Assembly: GCA_004022145.1 (NCBI GenBank)
Contig: RCNU01000005.1
Strand: one strand, 5' to 3'
Source: Paecilomyces variotii
Taxonomy: Eukaryota
DNA length: 64,000 nucleotides
Made by a program: the position numbers and the translations under genes. Shown here one piece after another: positions 13,994 through 37,213 of the stretch. Under the pieces are notes generated by a model. That model made no database searches. It worked only from the letters and a program-made list of their open reading frames with translations, and was not told where the DNA came from. Within the stretch, counting starts at the first letter, position 1, and the number at the start of each line of letters is the position of its first letter.

Positions 13994-16058
13994 ATGACGC
14001 TTGTTCAAGATCTAGCAACAGCAAATATTGAGCCATCGTTGAATGGCAATGGGATAGACCACGTCGTTCCTGCGCCTGCATTATACGATCTGAAAAATGC
14101 GCCAGTAACCGAAGTCAAGAGGATCCCTCAAGATTCTACAACAGAAGCTCCTGCAACCAAGCCGCGATTTGAACTTGAAGAACATCCCGTCGACCAGGTC
14201 AGAGATATCAAAGTTGGTGTGATTGGAGCTGGGTTGTCGGGCGTATTAGCGGGAGTGCTTCTGCCAGCGAAGCTGCCTGGTTTGGACCTACGAATCTATG
14301 ACAAGAATCCGGATGTGGTGAGTCCGTTTAATGCTTCGACAATTGCTCGTGGTTCAAAGCTAACGTGTGATAGGGTGGCACTTGGTATGCAGTAATAGTC
14401 CTTTGGCAATCGCAATATGTTACTCTAGCTAACAATGACGACGGTCAGGTTCGAAAATACCTATCCCGGCGTCAGATGCGATATTCCCGCCCATGTGTAC
14501 CAATCAGGATTCGAACCCAACACGCAATGGAGCGAGGAGTTTGCCCAAGGCAAAGAGATCAAGGAATACTGGCAAGGAGTTGCACGAAAGTACGACGTCT
14601 ACAAGTATTTGAAACTGAACCACCGAGTCGAAAGGGCAGAATGGCTGCCGGACGAGGGTAAGTGGAAAGTTACATTGAAGGATCTGAAGGAGGACAGAGT
14701 AAGCAGCACGTTGGCTAGTGGTTGTTGGTCTCCTCATCTGACGTGACTTGCAGGTGTATGAGGAGCTGCTGGATATCCTGATCGGAGCTATCGGCCATTT
14801 CAACGCCTGGAAGCTCCCGGACTATGAAGGAAGAGATCAATTCAAAGGAACGATCTTCCACTCTTCTAATTGGAACCACGACGTCGATCTCACCGGCAAG
14901 CGCATTGCCCTCATAGGAAATGGAGCATCAGGACTCCAGGTTCTCCCCTCGATCCAGCCCATTGCAGGTCATGTTGACCACTATGCTCGGAACCGAACAT
15001 GGGTGGTGGACTCGTTTGCCTCGACAGGTGTTCGCAGGCTCGAGCCGAATCTCTTCTCGAAAGAGCAACTGGAGTCTTTCAAGGATCCAGAAAAGTACCT
15101 GGAGTATCGACGAAGCGTCGAGAAGGGCTACTTCCAGAGATTCAGTGTCATCTTCAAAGACTCTCCCGAGAACAAGGAATTGCGCTCAAAATGGAGCAAG
15201 ATGATGCTAGATCGGGTGGTTGATAAGCCTGAGCTATCAGACAAGATCATCCCTGACTTTCCACCAAACTGTCGCCGACCGACTCCCGGTCCGGGATATC
15301 TGGAAGCATTGACCAAGGAGAACGTCAATTTCATCCAGACGCCTATCCAGCGCTTCACAGAAAAGGGAATCGTAACCAACGACGGCATCGAGCGGGAAGT
15401 CGACGTTATCATCTGCGCTACTGGTGCAAACGTCGACTTTGCTCCTCCGTTCTCTCTCATCGCCAACGGCATTGATCTGAAGACGGCATGGAAACCAGAA
15501 GGCCACTTCGGATTTCCATACACTTATCTCGGTCTCGCAACTCCCGGCTTCCCTAACTTGCTCTGGATCGGAGGCCCTGCTTCCTCTGGTTACAGCGGCT
15601 CTGTCCCAAACAACGTCGAAAACCAGATTACCTACCTCGCCAAAGTCATCCGCAAATTCCGCAGCCAAGGAATCAAGAGCCTGGCGCCATCGAAACAAGC
15701 CACGGACGACTACGTTGAGTACAGCGATCGGTTCTACCCTCGCACGGTCTGGACCGCCAACGATGACTCTTCCGAAGGAAACAAGAACTGCAGTTCGTGG
15801 TATAACGGTGGACGACCGGGTGGTCGCGTACATGGTATCTTCCCTGGAAGTGCAAGTCATGCCAACTATGTTCGGCGGGATCCCAGATGGGAAGATTTCG
15901 AGTACACGTATCTTAACCCTAGCGGGAATCGGTTTGCTTACTTTGGAAATGGGTGGACGAAGAGAGAGTTGGATCCCGAGGCGGAACTCACGCCCCATCT
16001 TACACTTCCTGAGAAGATTGATCTGAGATCATATATGGAGGGTTGGTGGGATGTATGA
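13994..16058 (+). CDS. FAD/NADPH-dependent Baeyer-Villiger/FMO-type monooxygenase, 4 exons, ~629 aa
   Basis: GAGLSG and GNGASG Rossmann motifs, GGTWFENTYPGVRCD, BVMO fingerprint FKGTIFHSSNW, ICATG. Exons 13994-14317, 14374-14384, 14449-14698, 14754-16058. Confidence 0.9.
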
Positions 16059-16478
16059 GTGGTCTGCGATAAGTTTACGAGTAAAGACAGATTATCTTAT
16101 ATGGAGAATATCAAATATTTCTTATATATAGGTAGCATGTATGTAGCATGTGCGATGAACCTCCCGACTTCCTCTTCTATCACATACCCCTTACAAGAAA
16201 ACTTGGCAATAGTTTATAGATGGGTTGGTAAATATGCCCATTGCTTATGGAATACTAAGACTCGCTGACTCGACCAACAACGCCAAATAGTATGATTTAA
16301 CTCTCTAGTACCGTATCTACTGCAGAGATATATTCCCTGCCTTTAGTCTCTGGTGAAGTACAGTAATTGACTGCCAGATGCGGGAGCTAAAATTCATAAA
16401 TAATCATTGCATCGTACTACTAACTCAAGTACTTCTGCACTTACTATGGTGTACTCCGACTTAGATGTAATTCTAGCT

Positions 16479-18745
16479 TTATCGATGGATACTACCAAAC
16501 CTCTGCCTATCTACGCCATGTTTCCGCTCAGAATACTGGCGCTCCAATCCAACATGCTCCGGTCTCGCCCTCCCGGGAAATCTCGGCTCGCCTCCGAGAC
16601 TTTCAAGGACGCATTTATTATTAGCAGTCAAGTCATCCATGACGTTGAGTTCGTGCTGGTTGAACCATTTCGGAATCACATATACCCGGAAGGGAATCAA
16701 TGCGATAATCAAAATAGGGAAACCTGATACTCTAGGTATTAATAGTGTTCCTGGAAGAATATATGTCATGGAAGAAATATTGTCAAGTACTGACCAATTG
16801 CAGCGATGGTTTGAGAAATGGCAACACAGGCAGCGACGTCTATCGCTTGACATGCGACCCATAGCAAGACTTTCCGCTTTCGCACGGTAAGTAGCGGTTC
16901 ATCTCGTTGGATGAATCGGTTTTCTCTCAGGACGAATAGAATTTTTAATAGAATCCCGTTCGTTTCAATCGATCCCCACTATATCATCATGCACGTTTGT
17001 TTTAGCAATCGTATAACGAGAAACATCTGGGAATGAGAGAGTCCTGGCCCCGTTATCTACGTACCCCGACAATGAAGAATACACCTGCAAAAACAGCGGA
17101 TGGCATCGTATGCAAGACTATCAGAAGTGGTCCAGTCATGGTACCGATGATAGCTAAAGCCATGAAGAAATGCGATATACGTTGCTCAACTACCGCAGTG
17201 GCTTTGACTACTGGTCGGCGGATCTCGGATCCTTCTCCTTCTTCAGTCGAGATGATCTGGACATCCGTCTCGTACACCGTGAGCGAGTCAGTATGTACGG
17301 GCGCCTGGAGCGTTTGTCAGTTTGTATATATATCTTGGAAACTCGTTGCTGTTGACGTCTTTGACATACTTGTGGAACTAAACCATTGGGCATCGGGATA
17401 CCGATGATGCCGGCTACAAAGGTCGTGCATCCCAATAAGAAGAAATCCCAATGAAAACCTGCTGGTTTCTTCAGTGGGTATTGGCGTGCTTGGGCAGTTA
17501 AGCTGCTGACGTTCTGTGTGGTGTCAGCACAAGAAGTCTCCGTAGTATGTACTCAATGGCTTCGAGACAAGGTAGAGTTACATGGTCATAGTAGAAAAGA
17601 AGCATAATCAGGAATCCGAAGGGCAATGCAGCAAAGACCCATTTGGCATCCAAATGCCAGAAATGGATTAACCAGCCTCGATCCTGCGATGGATAGAAGG
17701 CGCGAGAGACTGGCACCATAGAGATGTTCGCGGTTTGCAAACGACCGGGGAAATGTGCGAATCCGACCCAGAAGAGAGTTCCGATCTATACTTAGGTGTT
17801 GTGAGTTGAAGCCGTATTCCAAATCATGGCATTGTCGAAAAAGAGAACGTACCACATATGCGTAATCTGCCAGGAGCCCTCTGAGAGATGGTTTCCACAT
17901 GGTACTGGATCCTAGCTTCTCCAGTCCATAGATGGTTCCGAAATACAAGATGGCAATCATGCAACTCAAGTATCCGGCATTACTGCCCCTCGCATCGAAC
18001 TCGCTAGTTAATTCTTCGACGCCTTTGACTGTATATAATCCAGTTAAGCTGATATCTGCAAAAAAAATATTTTCCGACTGGTCTTACTTACTGCAGTAGA
18101 TTATACCCACGTACATGCCAAACGCTTCACTGGAGAAATCCGTCACATAGCGCATATAGTCACAAAGATTACACAATGAGACAATCCAGTGGAAGATTGC
18201 AGCCCAGATGCCCGTCCATGCCATGAAGCTGGGGTAAATAGAAGGCTCGTACTGTACAATGATCTCATAGATGGTATAATTGAACAGCGATATCAAACCG
18301 GTTATACCGACAATAGTCAAAGGCTGCGCTCCGAGAAGACTGAAAACGACAGCAGCGAGCGCGGATGAGAACAATGCTTCGTTAATGCCGAAGAACCCTC
18401 CTGTGCGACGGTCCATATCGAGGGTATAAGCGATGGCTGGGAGGATGCTGGAGTTGGGAAGTGAGCATTCCACGCTCTCCGCGGACATACAGAACCAATT
18501 GTAATGGTTAGGAAGGTCACGTACTTCACAAAATACATCCGGACCGTACTGGCAATCGTTCGGTAGGTGAGTGCATCCGTGATATCGCTCCAGTAATATG
18601 GTAAGCGCCTTCTCACATCATGATACATGCCTCGACCTATACAAAGCCACCGTATTCCTCTCCATCCATCCAGTCCCTCGTAGCCATAAGCTCTTTTGGG
18701 CTTGTCCCTTTGGGAGCGGGCTGAACTGTTCGAAGGGGACGTCAT
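16479..18745 (-). CDS. Bor1-like SLC4 (HCO3-/borate) anion exchanger, multi-exon
   Basis: DVRRRLPYYWSDITD, LPAIAYTLDM, QPLTIVGITG, FYYDH|NVSSLTAQARQYPLKKPAGFHWDFFLLG, NGLVPQ, VVEQRISH; CAACAATG start at 18745. Confidence 0.9.
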
Positions 18746-19471
18746 TGTTGACCAAGCGTCAGATCTCAACTACTGCTCTGGCATCGGATAATAGAATCGA
18801 AGACGACACAGAGACGAGATGGAAGTGGCGTGCAGAATGGTCTGCAGTGGACTTGATATTGTGACTGTCCTCTGGATATAGGTAGGCTAGGTTGAGGGGA
18901 ACGACTTTTTTTTATAGTCCTAATATGGAGCCAACTCGCTTGTCATTCTCTCTGGCCTCTCATTAGGCAAAATTAATACGGAACCAAGTCCCGGGTCCGT
19001 AGGTACGTGCACTACAATAGGAATATGGACTCTATAGAGCTGGATTCAATTGTGGTTTCAAGATCCCGATTCAATCATTCCCTTTGCTCGCGTGGCTGAT
19101 ATAAAAGGAGTCACTGGTGTAAACACTACCACAACGGATTGAAATCATTGACACATCTTCAAAGGCAGAGTTGCTTGGATCGAAGAGACTGAAGATGAAT
19201 CTCCATCCTGTTCTGCCCGGGCAGAAGATGACTAACTATCTCCATATCCGGGATGGAGATAGCTTGGCGCATTTGCCATCAACACAAGGAGGATCTTGGC
19301 ATCAGTAACATCATTCACTCTCGAAAGAGGGCTCTTCGGCCCAAGGGAAATTGAGAGTTAGTTCGTTTGGCTCGTAGCTATGCGCAGTGAATGCAGAAGT
19401 GGTGGTCATCGACACAAGATAGGCCCATATCAACCGGTTAAGTAATACAGTCGTTCTGTCTGTATCATACA

Positions 19472-21758
19472 ATGACCGCTATGGCGACCTCAGTGCCGAC
19501 ATGCAGACCCCCATCTGACGGAGAGCCATCTCGTGGTCCAACGTTGTTAGATCTCCTCAAAGAAGAGATTTCTGCCCAAATTAGCGCGCCAGCTTCGGAA
19601 CTTGACTCGCGAGATGGGCCATACTTACGAATTGAAGGCGTACTCTGCGGTTCACTGGACGACGTGCGCGAAAATGGGTTATCTGTTAACCAAAACGACC
19701 AGCGGCTGGTCCTGGTAAGGACTGCAGCTAATTTGGGATGGGCCTGTCTAATAGTGATTGCTAATATGAAGTCCAGGGATATCTCGCTTTCAAAAATGGA
19801 GAATTGATCCGCAATCCCATCCCCAAAGCATCGGTCCTGTTGGATTCCCAAGTAAGAAGGTTCTAAATATTCAAATGATCTCAGGCTGACAATTGCTCTA
19901 TAAGTGTCAGGTAGCGGAAGGAGAGGGTAAAGACAGACCGAATTGGAATCCACTGTCAACACCAGACTCCGGGCAAAGTGATGGTGGAGAGGGCTGCAAG
20001 AGGCGCAAAGTAGTTGGTGGCCTCCGGTTACAGAATCAAGGGAGTAACTCTGCGAGTGTCTCGGATGACGCAGCATCGGATTCTGGTTCTGGACATGAGC
20101 GCGGTGATGCCAGTGAAAACATATCTGTACGTCAGGTACTCAGTGATGTGACTCGCTTTCCTCTGCGGAAGCACAAGCGCAAGGTCGCTGGACCGGTGTT
20201 AGAACCAACCTCGGTGGATAGGCTCATAGCTGGAATATGGCGTCAGGTGCATTCGTCTGTACAGCTAAGTAGGCCTACGCTGGTATGTACACCCTGGAAA
20301 AAAGGCGATATTTCACCTCTAACACAGAGCAGCAGCAAAACACGGTTATTCGTTCTTATGGCTCATTGAGTAGTGAGGTCAGTTATCATCTGGTTCTTGA
20401 TGGATACAGATTCAGGCTCAGCAGTTCATTTATAGGACTTTCGAGAAGTCAGTAAGACGTGTTTGAGATACTATAATCAGAGCCAATCGTCCCGTGCGCT
20501 GGAAATGGTCGCACAGGCATATTGGGTTGAATGCTACGAAGGACGCATAGCTGCTGTGAGGACTGAAAACGAGGGATACTCGGCTACAGATGCTCACATG
20601 GCCGTCCTAGCAGAAGCCTGCGCTGCTCTTGGATGGAAGGAGAAGGACCTGAGAAATCGATTGTTCGTCTCATGATCAATGAGGACATGTCTGGGATGCT
20701 GACATGTCATATCAGAGCTATCTGGCGTGGCTATAAGGAGATCAAGGATGCCGGAGGATGGGCCTGTCTCATCTTTGCCAGCGCAGGTGTTTACCGCTTC
20801 TGCAAATACCGAAAAGGACATGATGAAGGCCTCTGGCCAAAGCTACAGAGTGTCCGGCACAGCGTCGAAGTTGCCGCCGACACTCTACATCCCGAGTGGC
20901 GGAACCTGGTCGATCTTATAGGACAAGAATCTCCTCGGAGGTATCATGGGAATCCACATCAATGGGTGACTATACGTTCCAAGCCTGCGATACCTATCGA
21001 GTTGACCTACAGCCATTTGCCGAATGGTTTCGATTATACGTTTATAGACGAGTGTATTCTGGACCGCAGTGCCTTCGGTGATGAAGATCCTCGTCGAATG
21101 CTCGGAGTAGACTCCGATACATGTCATATTTGCAAGCAACTGCAGTCGGATGATGTCCGTTTGAACCGTTGTTCTTGCTATCCTTCTCTGTTTGGGGCTC
21201 CTAAAAGCCCTGTGCCGGTGCAGATTTTTCATACGTCCACTGGAAAGAATAATGGCATCATTGCCCGTTGCGTAAGGATCCAAGCTGTCTCCATTGCTGA
21301 CGATATCTCGACTAACGGTGATATTAGAATTTCGAAAGAGGAACGGCTATTGGAGAGTTTGTGGGACTTGTCACCAAGGGAGTGCAAGGTATGGATGTCA
21401 TGGTTGGAGGTTCCCGTGAGAATACCTTCCAGATCTTCCAGGGTAAAATGGGTTCGTAAACTATTTATAAATGGATCCTATTCTGACAGTCCACTAATAT
21501 AATATACTTGCAGGCAACTTTACGCGATTCATAAATCATTCATGCTATCCTAATTGCCAGTTCCAGAAATTCTACTGGCGCGGCATTGAACGCATTATTG
21601 TTGTCTCCCGTGGTATAATAATGGGCTCTGAAATCACAGTCGACTACTCAGACCATTATTGGAAACAACTGGATAAGGTATGTCTTTGTGGCGAGCCATG
21701 CTGCCGGTTCTCGAACAGACAGGGACAGGAGTCGCGTATAAGGAGGAAAGATACATAG
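19472..21758 (+). CDS. Uncharacterised fungal SET-domain protein with Cys-rich pre-SET-like and post-SET segments, multi-exon
   Basis: Last exon reads GNFTRFINHSCYPNCQF...GSEITVDYSDHYWKQLDKVCLCGEPCCRF...TAG (21756-21758); upstream CHIC...CSC. GT-AG introns join ORFs 19472, 19893, 20463 and 20633; start codon less certain. Confidence 0.8.
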
Positions 21759-21837
21759 ATGAAGCCGAGTCTTGGAATAATTCATCTTAATCCTCTAGAC
21801 CGGTAGAGTTCACAACCGAGACGACCTTTCAAACGTT

Positions 21838-23307
21838 CTAATTCTCTTTCTGGAGCACATATTTTGGCGCCTCCTCCCCTTCCTTCCAGAAATACTGCGC
21901 CCCTGGATGCGTATCCGGCAACCTATTCTGCCCTGCTTTACCATATACATTCTCGCGGAACGTACCTCCCTTCACTGTATAATCATCCCAGAACAGCCCT
22001 CTCTTCCGCAATTCAGGTAGCAGATACGTGATGATATCCTCAAACGTCTCTGGGATACTAGCAGCGCTGAAATTGAAACCGTCCACATCGGCTACTTCAA
22101 CCCATTTCTCCAGCTGATCTGCCACTGTCTTTGCGCTGCCGATGATCTTGGGACCGTTACCGCCGAGCTTCAGGTACTCTGCGATGGTCTTCTTGTCCCA
22201 TTTCTTGCCTTCAGTTCCCGGAACTGTGCTAGCCCAGTGGTTGACCATGCTGCGGATCGCGGGCTGCTCGACGAAACGGAAGTCTTGGTCTTCGGGATAT
22301 TTGCTAAGATCGTAACCTGACCAGCCACCAAAGAGGGCCAGGGCACCTTCTTCGTCTCCATATGAAGCAATCTCTTCGAACTTGGCTTGTGCGGCTTCGT
22401 CCGTCTCCGCGACGATAGCCAGAACACCAGCGATGATCTTGATACTGGACGGATCGCGCCCAGCCTCCGCTGCCTGCTTGCGAATCGAGTCGACAGAGGG
22501 TCTCACGAGCTCGGGCGCATGGCCATTCAGGAAGATAGCCTCCGCATGCTTCGCAGCAAACGCCTTTCCAGCCGTAGACGTCCCCGCTTGAAGCAACAAC
22601 GGCGTCCGCTGAGGCGAAGGCTCAACGAGATGCGGTCCTGGAATCTTGAAGTACTTCCCTTCATGATTAATCTGGCGCACCGCATGAGGATCCGCATATC
22701 TCTTCTCGCTCTTCTCCACAGCTCCGTCCCTCCAAGACCCCTCCCACAACTTATACGTCACATTCAGATACTCATCTGCGATTCTATACCGCTCATCATG
22801 CTCAATCTGAGTGTCCAGTCCAAAATTCCTCGCCGCTGAATCCAGATACGACGTAACGATATTCCACCCCACGCGGCCACCGCTCAAGTGGTCAACGGTC
22901 GAGAAGCGACGCGCCAGCGCATACGGCGAATCATACGTCGTCGATGCAGTAATTCCAAATCCAATGCTCTGCGTCGCGGCCGCCAGGGCCGAGACGCTAT
23001 AAAGCGGATCAATTATAGGGAATTGCGTCCCGCCAGGAATCGTAGGATCAAGATTCGCAGGTCCCTTGTATACGTCGTAGCCGCCTAGGACATCTGCGAA
23101 GAAAATAGCGTGGAACTTCGCGGCTTCGAGCTTCTGCGCGATTGAGATCCAGTGCTGGATCGAGTTGTAGGAACTGCCTTTATCTTTGGGGTAGCGGTAT
23201 AGACCCGGGTTAAGGTGTGTGGGAGCTTGCATCGTGAAAGCATTCACGATGAGCTGCTTCTTAGCTGGTGATGAGGATGAGGATGAGGATGAGGATGAGG
23301 ATGCCAT
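21838..23307 (-). CDS. NtaA/SnaA/DszA (bacterial luciferase-like) FMNH2-dependent monooxygenase 1, intronless, 489 aa
   Basis: FFADVLGGYDVY, ARRFSTVDHLSGGRVGWNIVTS, HDERYRIADEY, KLWEGSW, PSPQRTPLLLQAGTS, DVDGFN, LLPELRKRGL. Confidence 0.93.
   Translation of the reverse strand: MASSSSSSSSSSSPAKKQLIVNAFTMQAPTHLNPGLYRYPKDKGSSYNSIQHWISIAQKLEAAKFHAIFFADVLGGYDVYKGPANLDPTIPGGTQFPIIDPLYSVSALAAATQSIGFGITASTTYDSPYALARRFSTVDHLSGGRVGWNIVTSYLDSAARNFGLDTQIEHDERYRIADEYLNVTYKLWEGSWRDGAVEKSEKRYADPHAVRQINHEGKYFKIPGPHLVEPSPQRTPLLLQAGTSTAGKAFAAKHAEAIFLNGHAPELVRPSVDSIRKQAAEAGRDPSSIKIIAGVLAIVAETDEAAQAKFEEIASYGDEEGALALFGGWSGYDLSKYPEDQDFRFVEQPAIRSMVNHWASTVPGTEGKKWDKKTIAEYLKLGGNGPKIIGSAKTVADQLEKWVEVADVDGFNFSAASIPETFEDIITYLLPELRKRGLFWDDYTVKGGTFRENVYGKAGQNRLPDTHPGAQYFWKEGEEAPKYVLQKEN
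23270..23303. repeat. (GATGAG)5 hexanucleotide repeat encoding the N-terminal poly-Ser of monooxygenase 1
   Basis: Read directly from the sequence. Confidence 0.9.
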
Positions 23308-24502
23308 TGTGAAGGGTATAATATTGTTTTGCTTATTTCTCAGTTGAATTGTCCCGGGTTCAATTGAAGAAAATACAAGAGAAAATGGAAATGGGAGCGA
23401 TGGCCGGACCCTCCTTGGAAGCCACGAAAGAGAAAAGAGAAAAGTCTAACAAGTTCCTCGTTCTGCTTTCCCTTTCTTTTTTCTTTGCGAAGTAAGATCC
23501 AGAGTACTTCTTCCCAGAAGCCCCTCCCCTCCGTCCACCCCTCCTTCGTGTCCCTTGTGCCCCTCACCCTACGCCTGGGAACTGGAACTGGAACTATACT
23601 ATGACCAGAAAAGGAAACAGATGCGCCGGAGAACTATACTAGGCCTCTCCATAATAATAATCACAGCCACAATTTCCTCAAGGCCGTTTTCTCTCCGTAC
23701 AGGTACAGTACATACCATACAAAAAACAAATCCTCCACCGCGGACATATTCCGACACGAAAAACCAAAATAGGTAAGGGACACGCGAAAGAAGATTATTC
23801 TACAGAGGAATTACAGATAGGAACGGTTCGAGGTGTCAATGCGTTGCTTCCGTGATAGGTTGGACATTGATAAAGCAAATACCGGGGTGCTATTGCGTCA
23901 GTGAACCCCGGAATCTCCTAACCATACATGAGCACTCTATGCAGTAACTAGTTAATGTTACCTACGGAGCTTCTAGACTAACTTTTATATAATTGATAAT
24001 TACAAGCTGTTTACTAATTAAGTGACTACTTTGAGGCGCGGAAGATGCCCGTGCGTAATGTTGCAAAAGGGGCTATTTTGAGGTGAAGTGAGGTATCATT
24101 GGTCTAGTCGTAGTATGTATTGTTGCACGGTGTCTAGATTCATCTAATGTTGATCGAAGATTAATCCGATTGATGATAAATACAAAATCTTGAGATCAGA
24201 CGACCTTTCATCGGAGATTAAGCAACGTTGGCGGTGGTGCAGTATCCGATTTCGGTGAGGAATTGTTTTGCAGGTCCAATCTACATGAGTTCAACTATGG
24301 AAATTTACGTGGAACATGTCTGGAATTAACGTTATTATACATCAGCACGAAGATTGCTAATGTATAGGTAAGACCACCGAAGTCAAATTATTCTATAGAC
24401 ATTTTAGTATCCATAGTCTATGGGTGTCATGTTTATAATCTAAATCAGACCGTGGCCGCCATATGTGTAAATGTCGTCTTCTTCTGGAATGGAAAATCCC
24501 AG

Positions 24503-25898
24503 TCACGCCTGTGAGTCAAGTCCAACAACAATCCTCTTCCCGGAAACGGAACCCTCTCGAAGAATATCCAGCGCGTCATTGATACCTGCAAGTCCACCCT
24601 TTGCGTGAACGACCTCTGGCAGTTTGATGCTATCTGTCTGTAAAAGGCCTTCGAGCCATGTGACCATGCTCTCACCCACAGCGGGAGAGGTATGGAAGAG
24701 CTTGATCGGCACAGTGTGGTAGTGAATCCGTGGATCTTGTTCCTTGGGAATGCCAGTCAATCCAAGAAGATGCGCCTGTGGACCGTCGTCTTCGCTACGG
24801 AATAGAGCATTCTGTAGCAGTGCCGCTGTGTCCTTGCCCACTATGTCGAGGCCAAAGCGTAGCTTACCACCCGTGACACCCCGAATGATTTCCACGGCAC
24901 GTTCAGTATTGTGTCGGTCTACTAGTAAATCTGCTCCGGCATCGAGGAGTTTCGCCCCGTGGCGCGCAACGTCTGCAACGCATATCACTTTAAGGCCGCA
25001 CAGTTTTGCGAGTTGTAGAGTGATATAACCAGTTGTAGTTGATGCTGTTATCTGTCAGTAGACTTTTCTATGCCAGTTTGCTAAGTTATAATGTCTCACC
25101 TCCCCAAATTGCCAGCCAATCACCGCGTTGAATCCGCTCTGATTCAGGCGCAGATGAAAAGCACTCTTTTCTGATATCCTCTGGAATGACGTTGATATTG
25201 GCGTCCTTCAGGACCTTGGGGAGATTCGGGCCTTTCGCACTTCCGGGAATAGTAGAGAAATCCAGGCCGAATGATACTCCCAAGGCCAAAGTCGAGGCCA
25301 CAAATGCCACTCCCAAAGATGCTGCCGCGTTTATCGACGTCGTCGAAGGTATCCGTGCTGCGTTGTAATGTGTTGCTACCGCATATTCCTGGAATGCGGC
25401 TTTCCGGATGTCTCTGTAGTCGGTCGATGGAACAAGGACGATATCTCCCACACGAACGCGCGAACTCTCATTGGATACCTGTACGACCACGCCAGCGAAG
25501 TCGCGGCCGTTGATCCAGGGCAAGGCGGGGATCCCGAAATTGAAAGCCCTATTGCTCGTTGCTCAGTGAGAATTCTTCAAAAGAAGTGCCGGCGAGTATA
25601 CATACGGCCCCTTCCAGTCGATCGGGTTCAACCCAACTGCAACTACCTTCACCAGAATCTCTCCATTGTGTATTAATGAGGGAATAGCGTGGTCCTCGAT
25701 CAATTTATACTTTTCTCGAGCAGCGTGAAGTAAAAGAACATTTTGTTTGCTCGTCTGCAATTTGGCGTCGATGGGACTGTTCGATCTTGTAGTATCTGTG
25801 CTGTCGCCTTGGCCTTCCACGAATATATGTCTATGGAATAGGACCTGCCCGTTCCCCTCGACTTCCTTGCACTGCAGGAAGGTTGATGTCGTCGACAT
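24503..25898 (-). CDS. MDR-superfamily NAD(P)H oxidoreductase (enoyl-reductase/quinone-reductase-like), 3 exons, ~427 aa
   Basis: GEILVKVVAVGLNPIDWK, GRDFAGVV, AAFQEYAV, IWG|ASTTG, VSGKRIVV. Exons 25898-25606, 25548-25100, 25044-24503. Confidence 0.88.
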
Positions 25899-26597
25899 TG
25901 TACCTGCTGCTATCAATGGTCTGCGCAATGTACACCACCAAAGAGAAGAGGTATCGGCGCGCTTTGAAGAGAAGGAAAATACTGTATTATACGAGATAAT
26001 AGAATCTGCAAAGTAATCCGGGTCTCAGGAACCAGCCCGAAATCCCACGCTTATCGGGATTATTCGCCATTGATTACGGATCTGAGGCACAGCAGGGCAT
26101 TACAAAACCCGAACCGTGCTTCGCCGGAGATGATTGGGCTTGAGAGGAGACGATTCAAGTGGAAACTCAGAATACGGCATGTTTTGGTACTTCGTGTTAG
26201 TATATCGGATTCGCAGCTGATGGTTGATATGCTCATGGCGGGGTCGTATGGCGTGATAGATCGATGTCATTGGAGGGGTAGCATGAAGAAACAGGAGGGG
26301 AATAGAAGAGTATCGAGCGGTTCAGTCGCTGTGTTACGCATTCCAACGCTCTTTTATCATCTTCAGTTGCTTGGGTTCTTCAGGGGTAGCGATCGTTCTT
26401 TCCAGACAGGACACTGGGTTATTACGGCGTAACAGGGGATACATTTGTCGCAGAATCCATTTTCATTTGCGACTCTACTCCAGACGCATCGATGTAACCA
26501 AGGGGGGCTGGTGGATGGACAACGTTGATTATCGTTGCCCGTTTAGCCACAGGATGCTGATGTGATTGCGGGTTCGGATGACGGGAGATTTTAACAT

Positions 26598-26621
26598 TCT
26601 CTCTCTCTCTCTCTCTCTCTC
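26598..26621. repeat. (TC)12 microsatellite in the divergent MDR/monooxygenase 2 promoter
   Basis: Read directly from the sequence. Confidence 0.9.
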
Positions 26622-27109
26622 GCCTGAGCTTCCCTTCCCGTTGCCGACAACTTCATGGGTAATAAGCGAGCGCCGTTAGAAATCAAAAATCTTAGGAATC
26701 ATTGCATTTCCCTTTATCTACATTACAGGGGTCCAATACCCTGCTTATAGCGTAATAATATGCGCCAATGGTGCGGATGTCACCCCGCAGCAGATATTGT
26801 AAAATTGGCTTGTATTATTTTGCGCCTCTTAACAACCAGACTACGGCTAAAGATACCAGTATGGTATTGTAGTGTTATCACGAAATACTCGGGCATATGT
26901 TTTGCATGCATAGAAGATGTATCTCTTAATAGGTCTTAGTGCGAGACTCGTGCTACGTTTGGGTCGCATACTTGAACAGAGTGAAGTCGTCTGTTTCCGG
27001 CACACGCTTCTTTTGTAAATATATCTACTTCACAGTTGGCCTAAAAAGAAGTCTCTCGATAAAACAGTGACTTCTATATTCGAACTCTGAGAAGGCTAAT
27101 CAAATCACC

Positions 27110-28826
27110 ATGGGTTCAGTAGGCGATGCGAACTATGAGAATGGGGCTGGGGGACAGAAGCAGATCCTTCTAAATGCCTTTGATATGTCCACGGTGGGAC
27201 ACTTATCACCAGGCCAGTGGAAAGTAGGCAAAAATCAACGATTGGGATCCAAGCTAGCGACATTATGTTGACCACTGCTTCATAGGATCCGGATGATAGA
27301 TCAGCCACGAAACGAAAGCTGGACTACTGGGTTAATTTGGCCAAAGTGTTAGAGAAAGGAGATATCAATGCTTTGTTTCTGGCTGACACCTACGGTGGCT
27401 ATGACACATATGAAGATTCGCTGGACAATTGTATCCGAAGAGCTGCGCAATGGCCAGTCACGGACCCTACAATTGTAAGACCCTTCTTGTCCCATCTATT
27501 TTTCTGTCGTCTAATTATCTGTTGTGTATAGCCGATCAGTGCCATGGCTGCAGTGACCAAGAACTTGGCTTTCGGGATTACTGCCTCAACATCCTTCGAA
27601 CCTCCGTTTCTTCTGGCGAAGAGATTCTCCACACTCGACCATCTGACAAATGGCCGAATTGGTTGGAATATTGTGACATCCTGGAAGAAAGGGGCGTTTA
27701 AGGCTATTGGACTGGACGAACCGATCGAGCATGACCGTCGTTATGCTCAAGCAGATGAGTATCTGCGTCTAACATACAAGTATATTACTCCACCCATATA
27801 TTCGTATGATATATACTAAATTTGCATAAACGTTTAGACTATGGGAAGGCTCATGGGCAGATGACGCAGTCGTTGCTGATGCGGAGAATGATACCTATGT
27901 TGATCCGGACAAGGTCAGAGTGATTGACCACAAGGGAGAATTCTACAACCTTGAAAGTAGACATATCGTCGATCCTAGCCCTCAGAGGACGCCGTTCCTC
28001 TTCCAAGCTGGAACATCACCGTAAGTAACGCTCCCCATATCTATCCCGCTTGCCACGGATGCTAAATTGATTTTGCAGAGCCGGGTCCCAGTTTGGTGCA
28101 ACTCATGCGGAGGCTATCTTTGTTTCCGCGCACAGCCCTTCTGTCTTGAAGCCCAGGGTTGCAAAGATTCGGGAATTGGCACAGGCGGCCGGTCGTGATC
28201 CTCAATCCATCAACTTCTTTGCTACCTTTACCCCGATTATTGGCCGGACAGAAGAAGAGGCAAAAGCAAAGTTTGAAAGAGCGAAGCGCTACGCTTCCCC
28301 TATCGGGGGGCTCGTTCTCTTCTCTGGCTGGACGGGAATAGACATCTCCAAGATCCCGCTGGATGAGGAGATAGACCCCGAAAAGCATTCTCTAGAGAAG
28401 CACAAGGTTACGTCGATCGCAGAAACTCTCACTGCCAGAACTCCAGAGCTACCCTCCCTGACACCTCGCTTGGTCGCTGAAGTTGCGTCCATCGGTGGGT
28501 TAGGACCTGTAGCTGTTGGTACTCCAGCCCAGGTGGCAGACGAGCTCCAACGTTGGATCCGGGAGGCTGATATCGACGGATTCAACCTTGGTTATGTTAC
28601 AACGCCTGGAACCTTTGAAGACGTCGTCGATTTGCTCGTACCCGAGCTTCGCAGTCGCGGCGTCTACCCTCCAAAGAGGGATGAGCAAGATCCACCACTG
28701 ACTGCCCGGGAGAAGGTGTACGGAAAAGGTCAAAATAGGCTGCGTGACGATCATGTGGGCAGTCACTACAAATATCCAGTATATAAGACCGACCCTCCCT
28801 TCATTAAAGAGGCTCCTTCGCAGTGA
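27110..28826 (+). CDS. NtaA/SnaA/DszA-family FMNH2-dependent monooxygenase 2, 5 exons, ~493 aa
   Basis: LNAFDMSTVGHLSPGQWK, FLADTYGGYDTY, AKRFSTLDHLTNGRIGWNIVTS, PSPQRTPFLFQAGTS. Exons 27110-27223, 27286-27474, 27532-27779, 27838-28020, 28079-28826. Confidence 0.93.
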
Positions 28827-29577
28827 ATATAGCTGCCTGTCTGTCCTTGATCAGATTAGCATTATTGACACGGGGATCTAAAGTCAGACGATAGACGCCG
28901 TTATTCAAGAGCGGCCGTCCTCGTGGTCTGGTATTTCGAACCCCGAGATAATTTCAGGAACCAGTCCATATAACACGAATAAAAGGATAAATTCATTATG
29001 ATTCATCCAATCAGTTCCCTGTTAATTCACTCGTTCGTTAACCAACTAACTAGTTAGTTAGCCAACTAGCTATTTTTACATAAGCATAAGACAGGCCGCG
29101 TCTCTTTCGCGTTCTAGTTAACTATTTAGTATGAGACTATGAGCTAAGTAGTTTGATGCTAATTTATCTTCAACGTTCTGGAATGCGATGATAAGACAAT
29201 ATGAGTTATACAGGCCGCAAAAAGGCTTATTCCTGCTGCATATTTCGGCATAAGCTTATCATGCCCAGTTGTTTCGGTCAGCTCAGATCATGTACTCCAA
29301 TCACTGGGTCTTACATCAATGTAGGGATGAATGGCGTGCGATCGGACAACAGTGCCAACCCTGTGTTTCTCTCTATTTCAGACGCCATGTTTACAAATAC
29401 ACTACAGCAATGGGCATCTTGCTACCTGTGCCGTAGATACTCAATTTTATCTCTCTCAGACACTCCCGACATATCGAGACCCCTTTCACAGTCTAATATT
29501 GCTATGCCTTAATCTGGATCGGCACCTTCATCTGGTTAGCCACTACGAAGCTCAATAACAGTTACAGGACCGAAACA

Positions 29578-31305
29578 ATGGATGACGCGGAGACTCTGAC
29601 GGAGGCTCTTCTGCCAGCATCTCAGGACTATCAGACATTCAGCACAGAGAGACCGTCGCAAGAAGAAGCAGAAGACCTTCGAGCCATCGAGCATGACACG
29701 CTACCAGAGACGGCCACCTACGGCAGGAATCTCAACTGGTCCAGTGCCTACATCCTCGTCATATCCAGAGTCATAGGGAGCGGGATATTTGCGACCCCAG
29801 GAGCGATACTGAAGTCGGCGGGAAGCACCGGTTTGGCACTGGTATTATGGGTCGTCGGTGCTATTTTATCAGCATGCGGTCTCGCGGTCTCCCTTGAATA
29901 TGGATGCATGCTGCCTCGGTCCGGTGGAGATAAGGTCTATCTCGAGTTTACCTATCGACATCCTAGGTTCCTCGCCTCAACCCTGATAGCCGCACAAGCA
30001 GTGCTTCTAGGCTTCACAGCCAGCAACTGCATTGTATTTTCCAAGTACATATGGTTTGCGCTCAATGTGCAGCCAACGGAGTTCCAAAATAAAGTCTTGG
30101 CTGCCGGCCTATTAACGATTATAACGTTCGTGCACGCCCGATTTCTGAAGACAGGCATTTGGATCCAGAATATGCTAGGGTGGATCAAGGTCTTCCTAGT
30201 TGCCATAATGGCAATCACTGGCCTGTTCGTGATTACATTTCATCATCAAAAGGATACCGATATTGGGTCTTCTTCCACGGCTGCTGCGACGGCCTTGCTT
30301 TCCTGGGATGAACTCTGGAGAGATACTAACTGGAGCTGGGGAACCATCTCCACATCCCTCTTCAAGGTCTTCTACTCATATGCTGGCCTGAGTAACGTCA
30401 ATAATGTCTTGAATGAAGTCAAGAACCCGGTTCGCACTCTAAAGACTGTCGGTCCGGCTGCTCTTATCACGGCGTGTGGCCTCTATCTTCTGGCCAATGT
30501 ATCTTACTTTCTCGTGGTTCCGATCCAAGAGATCAAAGAGAGCGGGGAATTGGTCGCAGCCCTATTTTTTGAACGGGCCTTTGGACCTCATTTGGGCAGA
30601 ACGATCCTCCCTTTAGCCATCGCAATTTCAGCAGCTGGAAATGTGATGGTGGTCACATTCACTCTTGTAAGTGGCCTATGTCTGCGATTTCAGCTGGACT
30701 CTGACAATGTATAGGCACGAGTGAACCAAGAAGTGGCCCGCCAAGGCTTCCTACCTTTTGCCAGGACGCTATCCTCCTCTCGCCCTTATAACTCTCCCCT
30801 GGGTGGTCTTATCGTACACTATATCCCATCTATATTGGTGATAACTCTTCCACCGCAAGGTGATGTCTATAATTTCATTCTTGACGTGGAAGGCTATCCC
30901 GGCCAGTTCTTTGCGTTGGCGATTACAGTTGGTCTTCTGCTTTTACGTTATCGACGTCCTGATCTCGAAAGACCGTTTAAAGCCTGGCTACCTGCTGTGT
31001 GGCTAAGGATTATTGTATGCCTAGCTTTGTTGGCAGCACCATTCTTCCCGCCTCCGGGCTGGAAAGGGGACGTGGATTTCTTCTATGCTACTTATGCCGT
31101 AGTTGGCGTGGGAATGTATGTCATCACTTCAATTTCTCATATCTTTGCTCAAGCTGACTTAAACAGAATCCTTTTCGCTGTAATCTACTGGTATGTATGG
31201 ACGGTTTTGCTACCTAGATGGAGAGGATATACTTTGGAAGAGGAGGTTGAAGTTCTGGAGGATGGGACCAGCATTACGAAGCTCGTCCATTATTATAAAT
31301 CATAG
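29578..31305 (+). CDS. LAT/APC-family amino-acid permease, methionine permease (Mup1/Mup3)-like, 3 exons
   Basis: SRVIGSGIFATPG, EYGCMLPRSGGDKVYLEFTY, SYAGLSNVNNVLNEVKNPVRTLK, ARVNQEVARQG, RPFKAW. Confidence 0.88.
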
Positions 31306-31716
31306 ACTATAAATGATCAGTAGGATAGCTATCAATAGAGCGTCATAGTTTCCCAAGGATGATAATTATACCGAGTGTGACATGTTGCCTAAATTCTGAA
31401 ACCGATCATGCGCCCCTTATCACTCCTGCAGCTACGCGGATTGTTCGTTATTTGCCAGCGAGTATTGAGTTGGCTTCCGGGATCAGCATAGTATGCATCA
31501 GGTCCAATAGGATCTATTTGCATTTCTCAGCATACAACTTTGACGCTATCGACTGTAATAATGGCATGCTGATCTGACAAATTGCCAGCTTTACCCCGCT
31601 TCTGTCATATACAAAATATCAAATATATATAGAGCTTTCTTGTAATCCTACAATATAGATCCTCAAGCACAACATATTTGCTTGTGGTCTTTACATAAAG
31701 GTATTATTCAATCGAC

Positions 31717-32694
31717 ATGGCTTCTGCAGTAGTGGGCCTGCCTTCTGGACAGGACGCATCCCTTCATGTCCAAAAATCGTTCCCCGTTAATTCATCAGAA
31801 AAGCCCCATCATGTTCAGACCATTCTTAATTATTACAAAGATCCTGGCGATGGCTCTCTTCCTTCGCCATCCTACGTCGGCAGGCCAGAAACCTACAATA
31901 ACAAGCCTGTGGAACCTACCTCGGTCACTGTGACGGATATTAGCGGCCATGAACTTGATTACACTCTCGACAAGAACGGCTTTCAGATCTACTATCATGA
32001 GAGTAAGGAAAAGGACTTTCTTGACGACGAGAAAATCCAAAAGGAGTATTATCCCGAGACAGAACAGTTGTTGAAGGACGCGTGAGTTGCATGATCACCT
32101 TCAAGCCCGTGATATTCTGGGATAGATAGCTGACAAGATGTGTGATACTGCTATAGGACCGGAGCTTCCCGCGTCTTCATCTTTGATCACACTATCAGAC
32201 GAGCTCCAAAAGATACTCGCACTCCCGAGGCTCAACTCCGAGGTCCAGTACAGCGCGTGCACATCGACCAGTCTTACGAAGCCAGCAAGAACCGTGTCAC
32301 TCACCACCTCCCTGACGAAGCCGACGAGCTTCTCAAGGGTCGTTACCAGATCATCAATGTCTGGCGCCCGATAAAGACCATCTACAAGGATCCATTGGCT
32401 GTCGCGGATGCTCACACTGTCCCCGACAGCGACCTCGTCGGTGTCCCTCTGATTTACCCCAATCGAGCCGGAGAGACTTACACTGTGCGACCGAACCCAG
32501 CACACAAGTGGTACTACCGCTATGGACAGACGCCGGAGATGGTCACTCTGATCAAGTGTTTTGATTCCAAGACCGATGGTCGAGCTCGAAGAGTGCCTCA
32601 TACCGCGTTTATCAATCCCGAAACTGAGGGAGCAGATCCGCGTGAAAGTATCGAGGTTAGAGCTCTTGTATTCCATCCCGAGGATAGGGATTAA
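31717..32694 (+). CDS. AsaB/CmcJ/NvfI-like (GA4-desaturase-related) oxygenase, 2 exons, ~300 aa
   Basis: YTLDKNGFQ, YYPETEQLLK, FDHTIRR, VHIDQS, INVWRPI, PHTAF, RESIEVRALVF; intron 32082-32156. Confidence 0.88.
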
Positions 32695-33493: not shown

Positions 33494-35069
33494 ATGGCGG
33501 ACCGCAAAGTGGTGGTTCCTAACGATGAAGAGATAGCTTACTCTCACAGTCAGGAACATCCAAATGGTATGTTATGTTCACAATAAACAGTTCTAAGAAT
33601 GCGCAGGCGCTCACACAACGCAGTGAAATGGTATCGATCGACTTTCTACAATGCGCTCATTCTGGGACTGTGCAACTTCCTCGCCCCGGGTATCTGGGGT
33701 GCAATGAACTCCCTCGGTGGTGGAGGAGACGAGTCACCTTATTTGGTCAATGCGGCCAATGCTCTGACTTTCTGTCTGATGGTATTATCATGTTTCTTTG
33801 GAAGTGTCGTGGTACGCTATATCGGGATTAAATGGACGTTTATTATTGGGACGATGGGATATGCGCCCTTCGCAGCAGGGCTTTACACTCATAACCGATT
33901 TGGGTTTGACTGGCTGGTCCTTTTAGGTGCAGCACTATGCGGCCTGTCTGCTGGAATTTTCTGGATGGCGGAAGCAGCAATTGCTCTTGCGTATCCTGAG
34001 CCCCATAACCAGGGACGTTTCCTCGGCTTTTGGTTGAGTTTCCGTGTCGGAGGACAGATCGTTGGAGGCGCTGTGAACCTGGGCATCAACATCAAGAGAA
34101 ATACCGCGGGAAAAGTCTCATATACCGTGTTCATCATTTTCATCGTGCTCCAGGCACTTGGTCCGTTTGCCGGTCTTCTCTTGAACAAGCCCTCGCAAGT
34201 TCAACGAACTGACGGGCTACCGGTCCGATTGAGAATCACCAAAAGTCCATGGGTTGAGGTCAAGGAAATGACCAAGCTCTTCTTCAGCCGGAACTTCCTG
34301 TTGATTGTCCCGCTTATCTCCCAGGCTGTCTACTCCGAGGCAGTCATGTACAGTTACCAAGACTTATGGTTCAGCGTCCGAGCTCGTGCTCTGGGATCGT
34401 TCCTCTCTGGAATTATTGCACTCATTCTGGGGAACGTCCTTGGTGCTTTTTTGGACCGGAAAGATATTTCTCTAAAAAAGAGAAACCGCTTTACGTTCTT
34501 CACGGTACTCGCGCTCCAGGGTGGCTGGTGGATATGGGGAACAATCCTGGTCACAGAGTTCCATAAGACGAATCCATCTTATGACTGGGTCGACCCTGGT
34601 TTTGGCAGAGCCTTCGCCCTATTCTTATTCCTGGTTGCTGGTTTTCAGCTGAACTATCTCTATCTGTGAGTCACTTATTATTCCGTTCTCCCGTGTAGAT
34701 CCTGAACCGGCGGAAACCTAACATCTCACTACAGGTACTTCGTCGTTGGGAACATCGCCAAGGACGAAGAAGAAGTCATTCGTATTGCAGGATTGCTTCG
34801 CGGTACCGAGTCTGCGGCTCAGGCTGTCAGCGTAAGTAATGCTGTTTTCCGTTTAAACAGAATATGCTGAAGATGAACTAACGTTGGAACAGTACGGCCT
34901 TAGCAGTGTGCCTATCATGGCATCTATCGGGAATTTCTATCTCAACTTCGCTCTCTGGGCGGTTGCATTGATTCCAGCATGGATTGTTACAAAGGATATT
35001 GGTGTCACGCTAGGTGACAGGAAGGTTGAGAGAGAAACAAAACTCTTGCGTGAATCTGCAAGCGAATGA
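33494..35069 (+). CDS. UNC-93-like (DUF895) MFS membrane protein, 4 exons
   Basis: LGLCNFLAPGIWGAMNSLGGGG, AGIFWMAEAAIALAYPEP, FSVRARALGS, GLLRGTESAAQAVS|YGL; first intron 33567-33590. Confidence 0.85.
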
Positions 35070-35350: not shown

Positions 35351-37213
35351 CTACACCGCGCTGACTTCTACCTCTGCATCTTTCCTCCGAATACCTGAAT
35401 AAAACTGCCTCTCCTCCAAAACCTTAATATCATCTCCTGCAAAAACTTTCCCTTCCTTCTGCGCTTTGTGTCGCAGCCGAGCAATCCTCCGCACGTCCCA
35501 TTCCAAGTTCCTCGTTAACCACCACGTCCATAGATTCGCAAAGAAGGCCGCAATGATCGAAGAGCCCGCGATTGCGAAACTGTTCTTGTAGCGGTTATAC
35601 GCCCATTTCTCCTGAAAGAGTTGCGGTCCAATCACACCACCTATTTGACCGACGCAGTTTTGGAAGCCCAAGGCGAAGGCCGCGCCAGTTGAGCCCTTTA
35701 GGGTCGTGGAGCGCCAGGCCCAGAAGGGGATGAAGTACATGCTGTAGAACATGGTGCCGAGGATACAGGCGACGTAGATTCCGGCGGGTGATGATATGGT
35801 GAAGAATAGTACGAAACAGACGACCATGCCGACCATGATGATCCTTTGTATATAGAGGTTAGATCACGGAAGCTGCCAGTATTTCGTAGCGATGGGATAG
35901 GGAGGGGAATCATACATAATATAAGCCGGTCGGGTTATATAGGCCCGTTTGATAAAATAAGCAGAAAATATAATCGCCAGAATGGAAGCCGCTGCAGGCG
36001 GGATATTAAGCAGCTGGTTCTTCGGTAATCCAGCAAACCCAAGACTTGTGGTGATTGTCGGCAGGTACCAACTGAGCGAGTAGCCACCTAGATTAACAAA
36101 GAACTGCGAGAGCATGAAGGCCCACATCGATTGTGTCTTCAGTGCTTCGATTACTTCTTCCTTCTTAAAAGCGGGATCACTGGTCACTGGAGCAGTTTCT
36201 GGCAGACGCGCCTCTATAAATTCCTGTTCTCGTGATGTGAGCCACTTGTTGCTTCGGGGGGATTTTGGGTAGTCGGGCAAGACTAGCCAGATGATAACAG
36301 AGAAAAGGATCGTCGCAATCCCCTCGAGGAGATAGACCCTGAGAATATACGTCAATATTTCGATATTACAGGCTGCGAGCAAGTCAAACTCACCAACGCC
36401 AGGCACTCAGCCCCCTCATGCCATTCATATAGCTGATGGCATAGCAAATCAATGACCCGACCACTGTTGCCAATTGTTGAATGCCGAACATCCATGCAAT
36501 AGGTCTGCCCATCTCGTCTGGGCGATACCAACTGGCCAATTGTACAGCCACCCCTGGGAACATTCCCGCCTCCAGCATACCCAGAAGGAATCGCAGCGCA
36601 TATAATGCTGCACGATTCTGGGCCGCAGCGTGACAGGCAAGGATAATGCCCCAAGAACAAAAAATTCGAGTTTGCCATACACGTGGGCCCACTTTCTTCA
36701 TGACCAAATTGCTTGGAGCTTCGAAGATAATGTAGCTGATCTAAAGATGGCATCGCAAGAGGTTAGCCAAAGAACGTTAATCTTGTACGAAGTATGTCCA
36801 GTCTTACAAAGTAGATAGATTGAATCCAATTATACTGGTCGGCTGTCATATGGAGTTCTTTCAGTATATTTCTGTCACTTCCCACCTGGAGCACTTTAAC
36901 ACTCGAGGCATTGGTGTAGTCAATCTATTCACATATTTCCAATCCCAGGTCAACAACCATTTGCACGCTGTATCCATGGCTAACTTACCGTCTTTATCAT
37001 GTACATTATTCCAGTGAGGAGCAGGAACCGCGCATCCACCTTCTTCATGATACTCTTCTCTTCCTCCGCCGTGAAGCTCGACAGGAATTCTGCTTTTGCT
37101 ACGGGGTCATCGCGCAGAATCCTCTCTTCAGCCCCAGTGACCTCAAGAGCGGGCCGTTTGCCTGAAGATTCAGACGGAGGCCCTTTGGGACGAGCCTCTG
37201 TTGTTGACTCCAT
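35351..37213 (-). CDS. MFS transporter, anion:cation symporter (Dal5/Tna1/Soa1/AstA-like) family, multi-exon
   Basis: MKKVDARFL, IDYTNAS, FEAPSNL, RFLLGMLEAGMFPG, WYRPDEM, GLSAWRW, LLEGIAT, LPDYP, LLNIPP. Confidence 0.88.

Follow-up and report, generated by a model that had tools for sequence, protein, structure and literature searches.

Sulfur sparing is known from the assimilation enzymes of Escherichia coli and yeast and from the yeast cadmium response, and Scott et al. reportedly described low-sulfur proteins of Pseudomonas putida in 2007. Passages of PMC8557817 report a low content of cysteine and methionine (Cys+Met) in the sulfur-acquiring enzymes SfnG, TauD, and AtsA of Rhodococcus IGTS8. 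In the passages of PMC8550094 that deal with Neurospora crassa, the genes NCU05883–NCU05888 encode two DszA-type monooxygenases, a Seo1 major facilitator superfamily (MFS) transporter, a flavin-binding monooxygenase, a DUF895 protein, and an oxidoreductase; a CYS-3 peak lies at all six genes, and five of them were induced by log2 6.7–10.3 (over 100-fold) by sulfur starvation, the induction being lost in cys-3 mutants. NCU05883 rose from at most 0.4 to 141–376 fragments per kilobase per million reads, a value not marked as confirmed in that source, and flanking NCU05881 and NCU05889 showed no rise. The oxidoreductase and a DszA gene there share one CYS-3 peak, which lies 610 bp from the start of the former and 590 bp from that of the latter. 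Here we describe a cluster of related gene types in a 64,000-nucleotide stretch of the Paecilomyces variotii genome (GenBank assembly GCA_004022145.1, contig RCNU01000005.1), referred to as the window. Ten genes lie between the isopropylmalate isomerase gene Leu1 and a glycosyltransferase-like gene, in the order Baeyer-Villiger/flavin monooxygenase (BVMO), Bor1-type transporter, SET protein, NtaA/DmoA-family monooxygenase 1 (MO1), zinc-free medium-chain reductase (MDR), monooxygenase 2 (MO2), amino-acid permease, CmcJ/NvfI oxygenase, UNC-93/DUF895 MFS transporter, and Seo1-like MFS transporter. We consider it likely, with a probability of roughly 0.8, that the cluster genes form part of a MetR/CYS-3 sulfur-starvation regulon and that selection stripped Met, and less fully Cys, from their products to save sulfur.

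The initial annotation of the window, made from the sequence alone, had counted very few sulfur residues in five soluble enzymes, and spliced gene models gave exactly the same counts for MO1 (0.61%), MO2 (0.81%), the CmcJ/AsaB-like protein (1.00%), BVMO (1.27%), and MDR (1.41%; counts in Table 1). The models of BVMO, MDR, the AsaB-like protein, and MO1 were identical to the annotated proteins P0513, P0535, P0525, and P0548 (0 mismatches), and RNA contigs, which were assembled contigs carrying no condition data, spanned the introns of BVMO, MDR, the dioxygenase, and the SET gene and three of the four MO2 introns among the joints listed. Leu1, which had been offered as a comparator with 664 aa, about 11 Cys and 18 Met, and about 4.4%, proved to be a 770-aa protein with a Cys+Met content of 4.16%; it is an Fe-S enzyme that ranks at the 78th percentile of the background, so it overstated the contrast and was rejected as a baseline. 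The background consisted of 60 evenly spaced 10-kb stretches (600 kb) on five contigs of the 30.1-Mb, 86-contig genome, which was the source of all paralogue and background comparisons. It yielded 100 exon cores of at least 250 aa picked by a codon model, a sample biased to long exons that stands in for the whole proteome, with a pooled Cys+Met content of 3.02% and a median of 2.9%. With the initiator Met excluded, the five enzymes in the above order contained 0.41, 0.61, 0.67, 1.11, and 1.17%, and equally low values were found in 1, 2, 2, 5, and 5 of the 100 background exons; the percentile comparison proposed in the initial annotation thus placed all five within the lowest 1–5 of 100. Of their 2333 pooled residues, 19 were Cys or Met, where the 100 exons would predict 70.5 (binomial P = 2e-13, which is optimistic since proteins are overdispersed). 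Among the 78 of 94 Pfam-scanned background exons that had a match, the one below the cluster enzymes was a weak DUF2420 match, and the next lowest was ATP sulfurylase at 1.39%, which served as a blind positive control for sulfur sparing.

The depletion was restricted to the two sulfur residues. Against per-residue expectations from 31 background enzyme exons selected by Pfam names, the five pooled enzymes contained 9 Met for 46.1 expected (0.20) and 10 Cys for 23.9 (0.42), and the other 18 residues stood at 0.82–1.43 of expectation, including the costly Trp (1.43), Tyr (1.31), and Phe (1.07). In BVMO and MDR the deficit was almost wholly one of Met (3 for 12.4 and 1 for 8.4 expected), with Cys near normal in both. 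A general selection for cheap composition in highly expressed proteins would predict that expensive residues are avoided as well, and gains of aromatic residues in the orthologue sets did fall below an LG simulation on trees (every second long homologue match; sets of 41, 41, and 57 sequences); however, in the five proteins themselves none of Trp, Tyr, Phe, and His fell below background and Leu1 was rich in sulfur residues, and we regard this explanation as highly improbable.

The clearest case after correction for family was the BVMO. The gene product is a type I BVMO by its motifs, namely two GxGxxG motifs, an FxGxxxHSxxW sequence of the FxGxxxHxxxW type, and GGxWxxxxYPGxxxD, and by its best Protein Data Bank (PDB) matches, which were BVMOs. 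An 11-nt micro-exon (14374–14384) encodes GGTW of the conserved motif and was present in RNA contigs of two runs. The last BVMO exon matched a P. variotii protein at 100% identity. Over aligned regions, all 16 other BVMO and flavin monooxygenase loci of the genome contained 1.97–4.70% Cys+Met against 1.11% in the cluster enzyme, and the median was 3.0% for the 12 loci with at least 298 aligned residues. Among 120 listed homologue matches, 85 were full length with a median of 1.16%, and the top values of 2.4 and 2.9% were among the most distant. The depletion was therefore clean after paralogue correction, the compositional evidence for BVMO is strong, and the claim that composition ties this gene to a sulfur role was borne out.

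The BVMO paralogues also bear on the possibility that oxygenases which sulfoxidise thioethers or leak peroxide have shed Met and Cys against self-damage, whatever the sulfur supply. Met was the most depleted residue, four of the five enzymes are oxygenases, and uncoupling by flavin oxygenases is established, all of which would agree with oxidation avoidance. The paralogues of the same chemistry were nevertheless undepleted, and two proteins that are not oxygenases, the reductase and the amino-acid permease (4 Met for 10.7 expected), had lost Met as well. We judge oxidation avoidance to be improbable.

The second strong case was the iron-dependent dioxygenase. Known CmcJ/NvfI oxygenases tailor secondary metabolites. 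The cluster protein resembled them (PDB 7eus; NvfI, 7de2) in that it matched NF041278 above the cut-off and had the HxD...H triad (the P. lecythidis orthologue scored 256 bits against a cut-off of 80), and differed in belonging to a nearly sulfur-free subgroup tied to a permease. Membership of the TauD family (PF02668) was rejected, as the protein gave no Pfam match; TauD, Jlp1, and AtsK serve here as a functional comparison. Full-length homologues made up 79 of 120 listed matches, with 72–95% identity over the query exon, and came from several ascomycete classes. Internal Met was absent in 68 of these 79, of which 61 also had exactly one Cys, and the median was 0.34%; the single Cys was invariant in all 41 aligned orthologues. 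The tree simulation, informative for the dioxygenase alone, gave new Met states at 0.18 of their expected share, with Leu, Ile, Val, and Phe at 0.83–0.87 and Trp also low at 0.14. Two paralogues in the genome contained 1.39 and 3.51%, and 124 representatives of the CmcJ/NvfI family had bin medians of 1.31, 1.81, and 2.67%, so that the orthologue group lay below both family and paralogues. The compositional evidence for the dioxygenase is therefore strong, and the proposed tie between the AsaB-like gene and a sulfur role holds at the level of the orthologue group. The dioxygenase also appears to be linked to the permease: two of its orthologues carried the name 'high-affinity methionine permease', and the annotation of one shows an 800-aa protein in which it is fused to an amino-acid permease.

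Among 30 bacterial homologues of the dioxygenase, SsuA, SsuC, SsuD, or NtaA/DmoA-like neighbours occurred at 9 of 13 loci with at most 2.1% Cys+Met versus 2 of 17 above that value (Fisher P 0.002); the profile scan covered 93 of 120 neighbouring frames, and the tblastn follow-up queries were taken from low-sulfur loci and were hence partly circular. The low-sulfur bacterial group corresponded approximately to one clade (support 0.90, median 1.6%) with a sister clade at 3.3%, and since this clade lies outside that holding the fungal protein, it represents about one independent event. Loci L171, L173–L176, L178, L181, and L196 are low in Cys+Met and adjoin sulfonate ATP-binding cassette transporter, SsuD-like, or NtaA/DmoA genes.

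The monooxygenases gave a different result. MO1 scored 486.5 bits against TIGR03860 (cut-off 279.7), MO2, scanned as two exons, scored 174.4 and 120.1 bits, and the best PDB match of MO1 was dimethyl-sulfide monooxygenase (E 2e-133), followed by LadA and DszA. In this MO1 resembles the bacterial reduced flavin mononucleotide (FMNH2)-dependent NtaA/DmoA/DszA/LadA monooxygenases (PDB 6ak1, 3b9n, 5tlc); the cluster differs from the bacterial systems in having no visible flavin reductase gene, and the fungal members are called uncharacterised in passages of PMC5857272. All five NtaA/DmoA genes of the genome were low (0.62–1.15%), including three unclustered paralogues (0.68–1.15%), so for MO1 and MO2 composition tells no more than the family label does, and the view that their depletion is independent of family did not stand. 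This pattern would be expected if the folds simply need few Cys or Met, as in luciferase-like and CmcJ folds of low sulfur content and in an MDR without zinc ligands, and the five low values were inherited. The same explanation could draw on the zinc-free MDRs described below, five of nine of which contained at most 1.51% where 12 zinc types had a median of 4.96%, and on the low bin medians of the CmcJ/NvfI family. It accords poorly with the normal composition of the BVMO fold in 16 of 16 paralogues, with the dioxygenase paralogue at 3.51% (the other being at 1.39%), and with the difference between the bacterial sister clades; moreover, the low values of the other NtaA/DmoA genes may themselves reflect sulfur sparing. 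We consider family-intrinsic composition unlikely as the whole explanation. The three unclustered NtaA/DmoA genes may also serve sulfur scavenging; in a scan of 40 of 102 neighbouring frames, no sulfur genes were found beside the unclustered monooxygenase and dioxygenase paralogues. One of the NtaA/DmoA paralogues (L002, G000:C4:88k) lacks introns and is 58% identical to MO1; it is oriented divergently to a gene of the sodium:solute symporter family, and the region separating the two contains two near-CYS-3 sites.

For the MDR, the best PDB matches were LovC and quinone oxidoreductase, and enoyl-reductase-like clusters alone were found in the ESM Atlas; a zinc-dependent alcohol dehydrogenase was rejected, as neither a GHE motif nor the four-Cys zinc lobe was present. 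The protein (427 aa) is longer than LovC (371 aa), and a stretch between its GroES-like part and the nucleotide-binding motif (window 25200–25400) lies outside the PDB alignments. Thirty of 60 ADH_N matches in the genome were examined, of which 12 were zinc types and nine were classed as zinc-free (one of them, L061, is probably a zinc type). The nine contained 0.32, 0.44, 1.27, 1.27, 1.51, 2.64, 4.63, 4.72, and 5.37%, and beside them the cluster MDR (1.17%) was third lowest, and narrowly the lowest on Met alone. Its full-length homologues (112) had a median of 1.20%. With five zinc-free paralogues at 0.32–1.51%, composition by itself fails to connect the MDR with the cluster in the way that had been claimed, and this evidence is weak; the best link would be the regulatory parallel formed by the shared Neurospora peak and a promoter motif. 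The paralogues at 0.32% (L079, G000:C1:4656k) and 0.44% (L072, G000:C12:2058k) are candidate further regulon members; in the case of L072, an exact site of the CYS-3 type lies 386 bp upstream of the matched region. The signal was thus diagnostic for two of the five enzymes, BVMO and the dioxygenase, whereas in the monooxygenases it was shared by the whole family and for the MDR it was weak; the broader claim that composition supports the role of the cluster independently of family labels stands for the first two, fails for MO1 and MO2, and is weakly backed for the MDR.

The initial annotation had stated that the transporters and the SET protein lack the bias. This was correct for the Bor1-type transporter (4.18%), the Seo1-like carrier (4.68%), and the SET protein (4.76%), but not for the permease (1.85%) or the UNC-93/DUF895 MFS transporter (2.60%), both of which lay below all 11 background transporter exons (2.75–5.02%). 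Since five permease paralogues spanned 1.94–4.16%, the permease signal is modest. BVMO and MO1 carried consecutive locus tags in four annotations, two each of P. lecythidis and P. variotii; six other P. variotii annotations placed two genes between them. Judged from these tags, not from DNA, Bor1 and SET (16479–21758) most likely form a presence/absence insertion between BVMO and MO1; absent here in four related annotations, they are also genes without depletion. Depletion, Met bias, conservation in orthologues, and absence from the BVMO paralogues and the two inserted genes were thus all observed.

Depletion had also been taken as a link to the cluster as such. BVMO and MDR, judged by hand from match listings, fell on contigs of equal length in 28 of the 32 non-Penicillium species common to both lists, with near-adjacent tags in several, among them Aspergillus calidoustus (11325/11326) and A. 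nanangensis (7475/7477, dioxygenase 7479), and were adjacent in 0 of 12 Penicillium species (some from different strains). The Penicillium orthologues and their linked counterparts were equally low (BVMO 1.29 vs 1.15%, MDR 1.15 vs 1.41%), which shows that the bias follows the orthologue group or sulfur regulon; it marks regulon membership rather than physical clustering.

For the P. variotii genes, regulation may be deduced from the parallel with the Neurospora block together with a single motif match. As far as the passages of PMC8550094 go, both blocks hold the six gene types and a divergent oxidoreductase/DszA pair, which in P. variotii corresponds to the 1211-bp MDR/MO2 promoter, and by annotation the UNC-93/DUF895 transporter is of the same gene type as NCU05886 and the Seo1-like transporter (a subfamily name given from reading of the sequence) as NCU05884. 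The Neurospora block differs in having no annotated CmcJ/NvfI gene or amino-acid permease, no Bor1 or SET gene, and another gene order. The CYS-3 motif ATBRCGCCATC was taken from the same passages, and its first ten positions, ATBRCGCCAT, had one exact match in the region, at 26248; 11 matches occurred in the 600-kb background, and about 0.1 would be expected over the cluster promoters. Five exact CYS-3-type sites were found in eight TauD upstream regions. One-mismatch motifs were discounted, as they occurred at 0.26 per kb and also upstream of control genes, and the parts of the literature on MetR sites that were covered gave no Aspergillus MetR motif. Homologue searches with the cluster proteins had no Neurospora protein among the matches listed.

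Several observations weigh against a sulfur-starvation regulon shaped by sulfur sparing. The Seo1-like carrier showed no depletion, and the TauD family, taken as a positive control, was mixed (0.39–3.63% over partial regions at 15 loci), with 5 of 15 loci below 1%; the signature is therefore not a sensitive marker. The CmcJ/NvfI family runs low, 41 of 124 representatives being at or below 1.5% and approximately 12 at or below about 0.7%, beside 0.67% in the window dioxygenase, and zinc-free MDR paralogues were often as low as the cluster MDR. In the simulation, aromatic gains were also under-represented (BVMO Phe 0.69; MDR Phe 0.55 and Tyr 0.56; Trp 0.14–0.64); because of this, and of the missing control family without a sulfur role, the Met ratios of BVMO (0.50) and MDR (0.54, no lower than its Phe or Tyr) are not clean. 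Orthology with the NCU genes would rest on annotation and arrangement, not sequence, in a block with neither dioxygenase nor permease annotated, and induction by sulfur starvation was measured in the Neurospora block, not in P. variotii. ATBRCGCCAT was absent, even at one mismatch, upstream of BVMO, MO1, the permease, and the dioxygenase.

If the cluster belongs to a sulfur-starvation regulon, its genes would be strongly induced once sulfate, Met, and Cys run out, and their Met-poor products would be made at low sulfur cost. The permease and MFS carriers would take up organosulfur compounds; the most likely substrates are thioethers, sulfoxides, or sulfones, among them sulfur-containing derivatives of amino acids. 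Sulfoxidation by BVMOs is established chemistry, and the BVMO would convert sulfides to sulfoxides or sulfones; the two DmoA/DszA-like monooxygenases would cleave C-S bonds, and the Fe(II)/2-oxoglutarate (2OG) oxygenase would hydroxylate the carbon adjoining sulfur, as TauD and AtsK do. Passages of PMC5857272 describe such alpha-hydroxylation for Jlp1 and AtsK. The MDR might reduce a leftover aldehyde or recycle a redox cofactor, and the released sulfite would enter assimilation. A MetR/CYS-3-induced set for organosulfur scavenging is the most likely reading, and this assignment of steps and substrates is putative; no flavin reductase gene was seen among the cluster genes.

Table 1. Genes and motif of the P. 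variotii cluster and the Leu1 comparator (window positions)
Feature	Position	Strand	Properties
Leu1 isopropylmalate isomerase	10088..12533	-	770 aa; 13 Cys + 19 Met (4.16%); comparator outside cluster
Type I Baeyer-Villiger/flavin monooxygenase (BVMO)	13994..16058	+	629 aa; 4 exons (one 11 nt); 4 Cys + 4 Met
Bor1-type HCO3- transporter family gene	16479..18745	-	598 aa; 4.18% Cys+Met; probable accessory insertion
SET-domain protein	19472..21758	+	630 aa; 8 exons; 4.76% Cys+Met; seven intron joints in RNA; probable accessory insertion
NtaA/DmoA (DszA-like) FMNH2-dependent monooxygenase 1 (MO1)	21838..23307	-	489 aa; intronless; 0 Cys + 3 Met
Zinc-free medium-chain reductase (MDR; LovC/quinone-oxidoreductase type)	24503..25898	-	427 aa; 3 exons; 4 Cys + 2 Met; divergent from MO2
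Exact match, first 10 positions of CYS-3 motif ATBRCGCCATC	26248..26257	.	inside 1211-bp divergent MDR/MO2 promoter
NtaA/DmoA-family monooxygenase 2 (MO2)	27110..28826	+	493 aa; 5 exons; 1 Cys + 3 Met
L-type amino-acid (methionine-permease-like) permease	29578..31305	+	542 aa; 5 Cys + 5 Met; TIGR00911 below cut-off
CmcJ/NvfI (AsaB-like) Fe(II)/2-oxoglutarate oxygenase	31717..32694	+	300 aa; 2 exons; triad H157-D159-H270; 1 Cys + 2 Met
UNC-93/DUF895-type MFS transporter	33494..35069	+	462 aa; 2.60% Cys+Met; past the initially annotated span; probably cluster member
Seo1/allantoate-permease-like MFS transporter	35351..37213	-	534 aa; 4.68% Cys+Met; past the initially annotated span; probably cluster member

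Upstream of Leu1 lies an alpha-1,3-glucan-synthase-like gene (843–8402) with a 2015-codon exon, named from reading of its translation. One RNA contig (run X1, record 2) covered 21452–23384 and extended from the final exon of SET across the entire convergent MO1 gene; transcript overlap or read-through is possible, and a contig over two genes does not prove a single transcript. The deepest contig by far in runs X1 and X5 lay over the dioxygenase (31717–32694), although contig depth cannot rank genes. Cover was lacking in run X18 and over Bor1 and SET in X5, neither of which excludes expression, and these gaps were not used as evidence.

Sulfur sparing itself is a known principle, of which the cluster is a further instance, and the surprise is limited to that extent. 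The cluster shares with the described systems a low Cys+Met content in sulfur acquisition, as does P. variotii ATP sulfurylase; it differs in that its enzymes are uncharacterised fungal ones and the depletion is Met-dominated and was tested against paralogues. According to passages of PMC5857272, Jlp1 is the sole verified fungal aliphatic sulfonate enzyme, fungal FMNH2 monooxygenases were earlier proposed as sulfur genes from promoter motifs, and Paecilomyces has been reported to oxidise and desulfurise dibenzothiophene. The passages of PMC8550094 list the NCU genes singly, and the term 'sulfur content' is absent from them. A search of the literature, with subscription papers outside its scope, found no treatment of the composition of the cluster, no sulfur role for the dioxygenase, and no dioxygenase-permease pair described as a sulfur-scavenging unit. 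We tentatively propose, at somewhat less than even odds, that the CmcJ/NvfI gene represents an undescribed Fe(II)/2OG desulfurising subfamily, a third route beside TauD/Jlp1 and AtsK, which throughout the filamentous ascomycetes would work with the adjacent methionine-permease-like carrier on sulfur-containing amino-acid derivatives; a separate lineage in bacteria would have converged on low sulfur beside ssu and NtaA/DmoA genes.

Little is understood of how sulfides, sulfoxides, and sulfones are desulfurised by fungi. Family-corrected composition nominates BVMO and the CmcJ/NvfI oxygenase as members of such a pathway, and composition separates the old cluster from the two inserted genes, which leaves a short, testable gene list. 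The iron-dependent oxygenase, so far unstudied, is likely to be a new fungal tool for extracting sulfur from organic compounds, and if the proposed desulfurising subfamily is real, paralogue-corrected Met depletion would offer a genome-only route to unannotated sulfur-scavenging enzymes of fungi.

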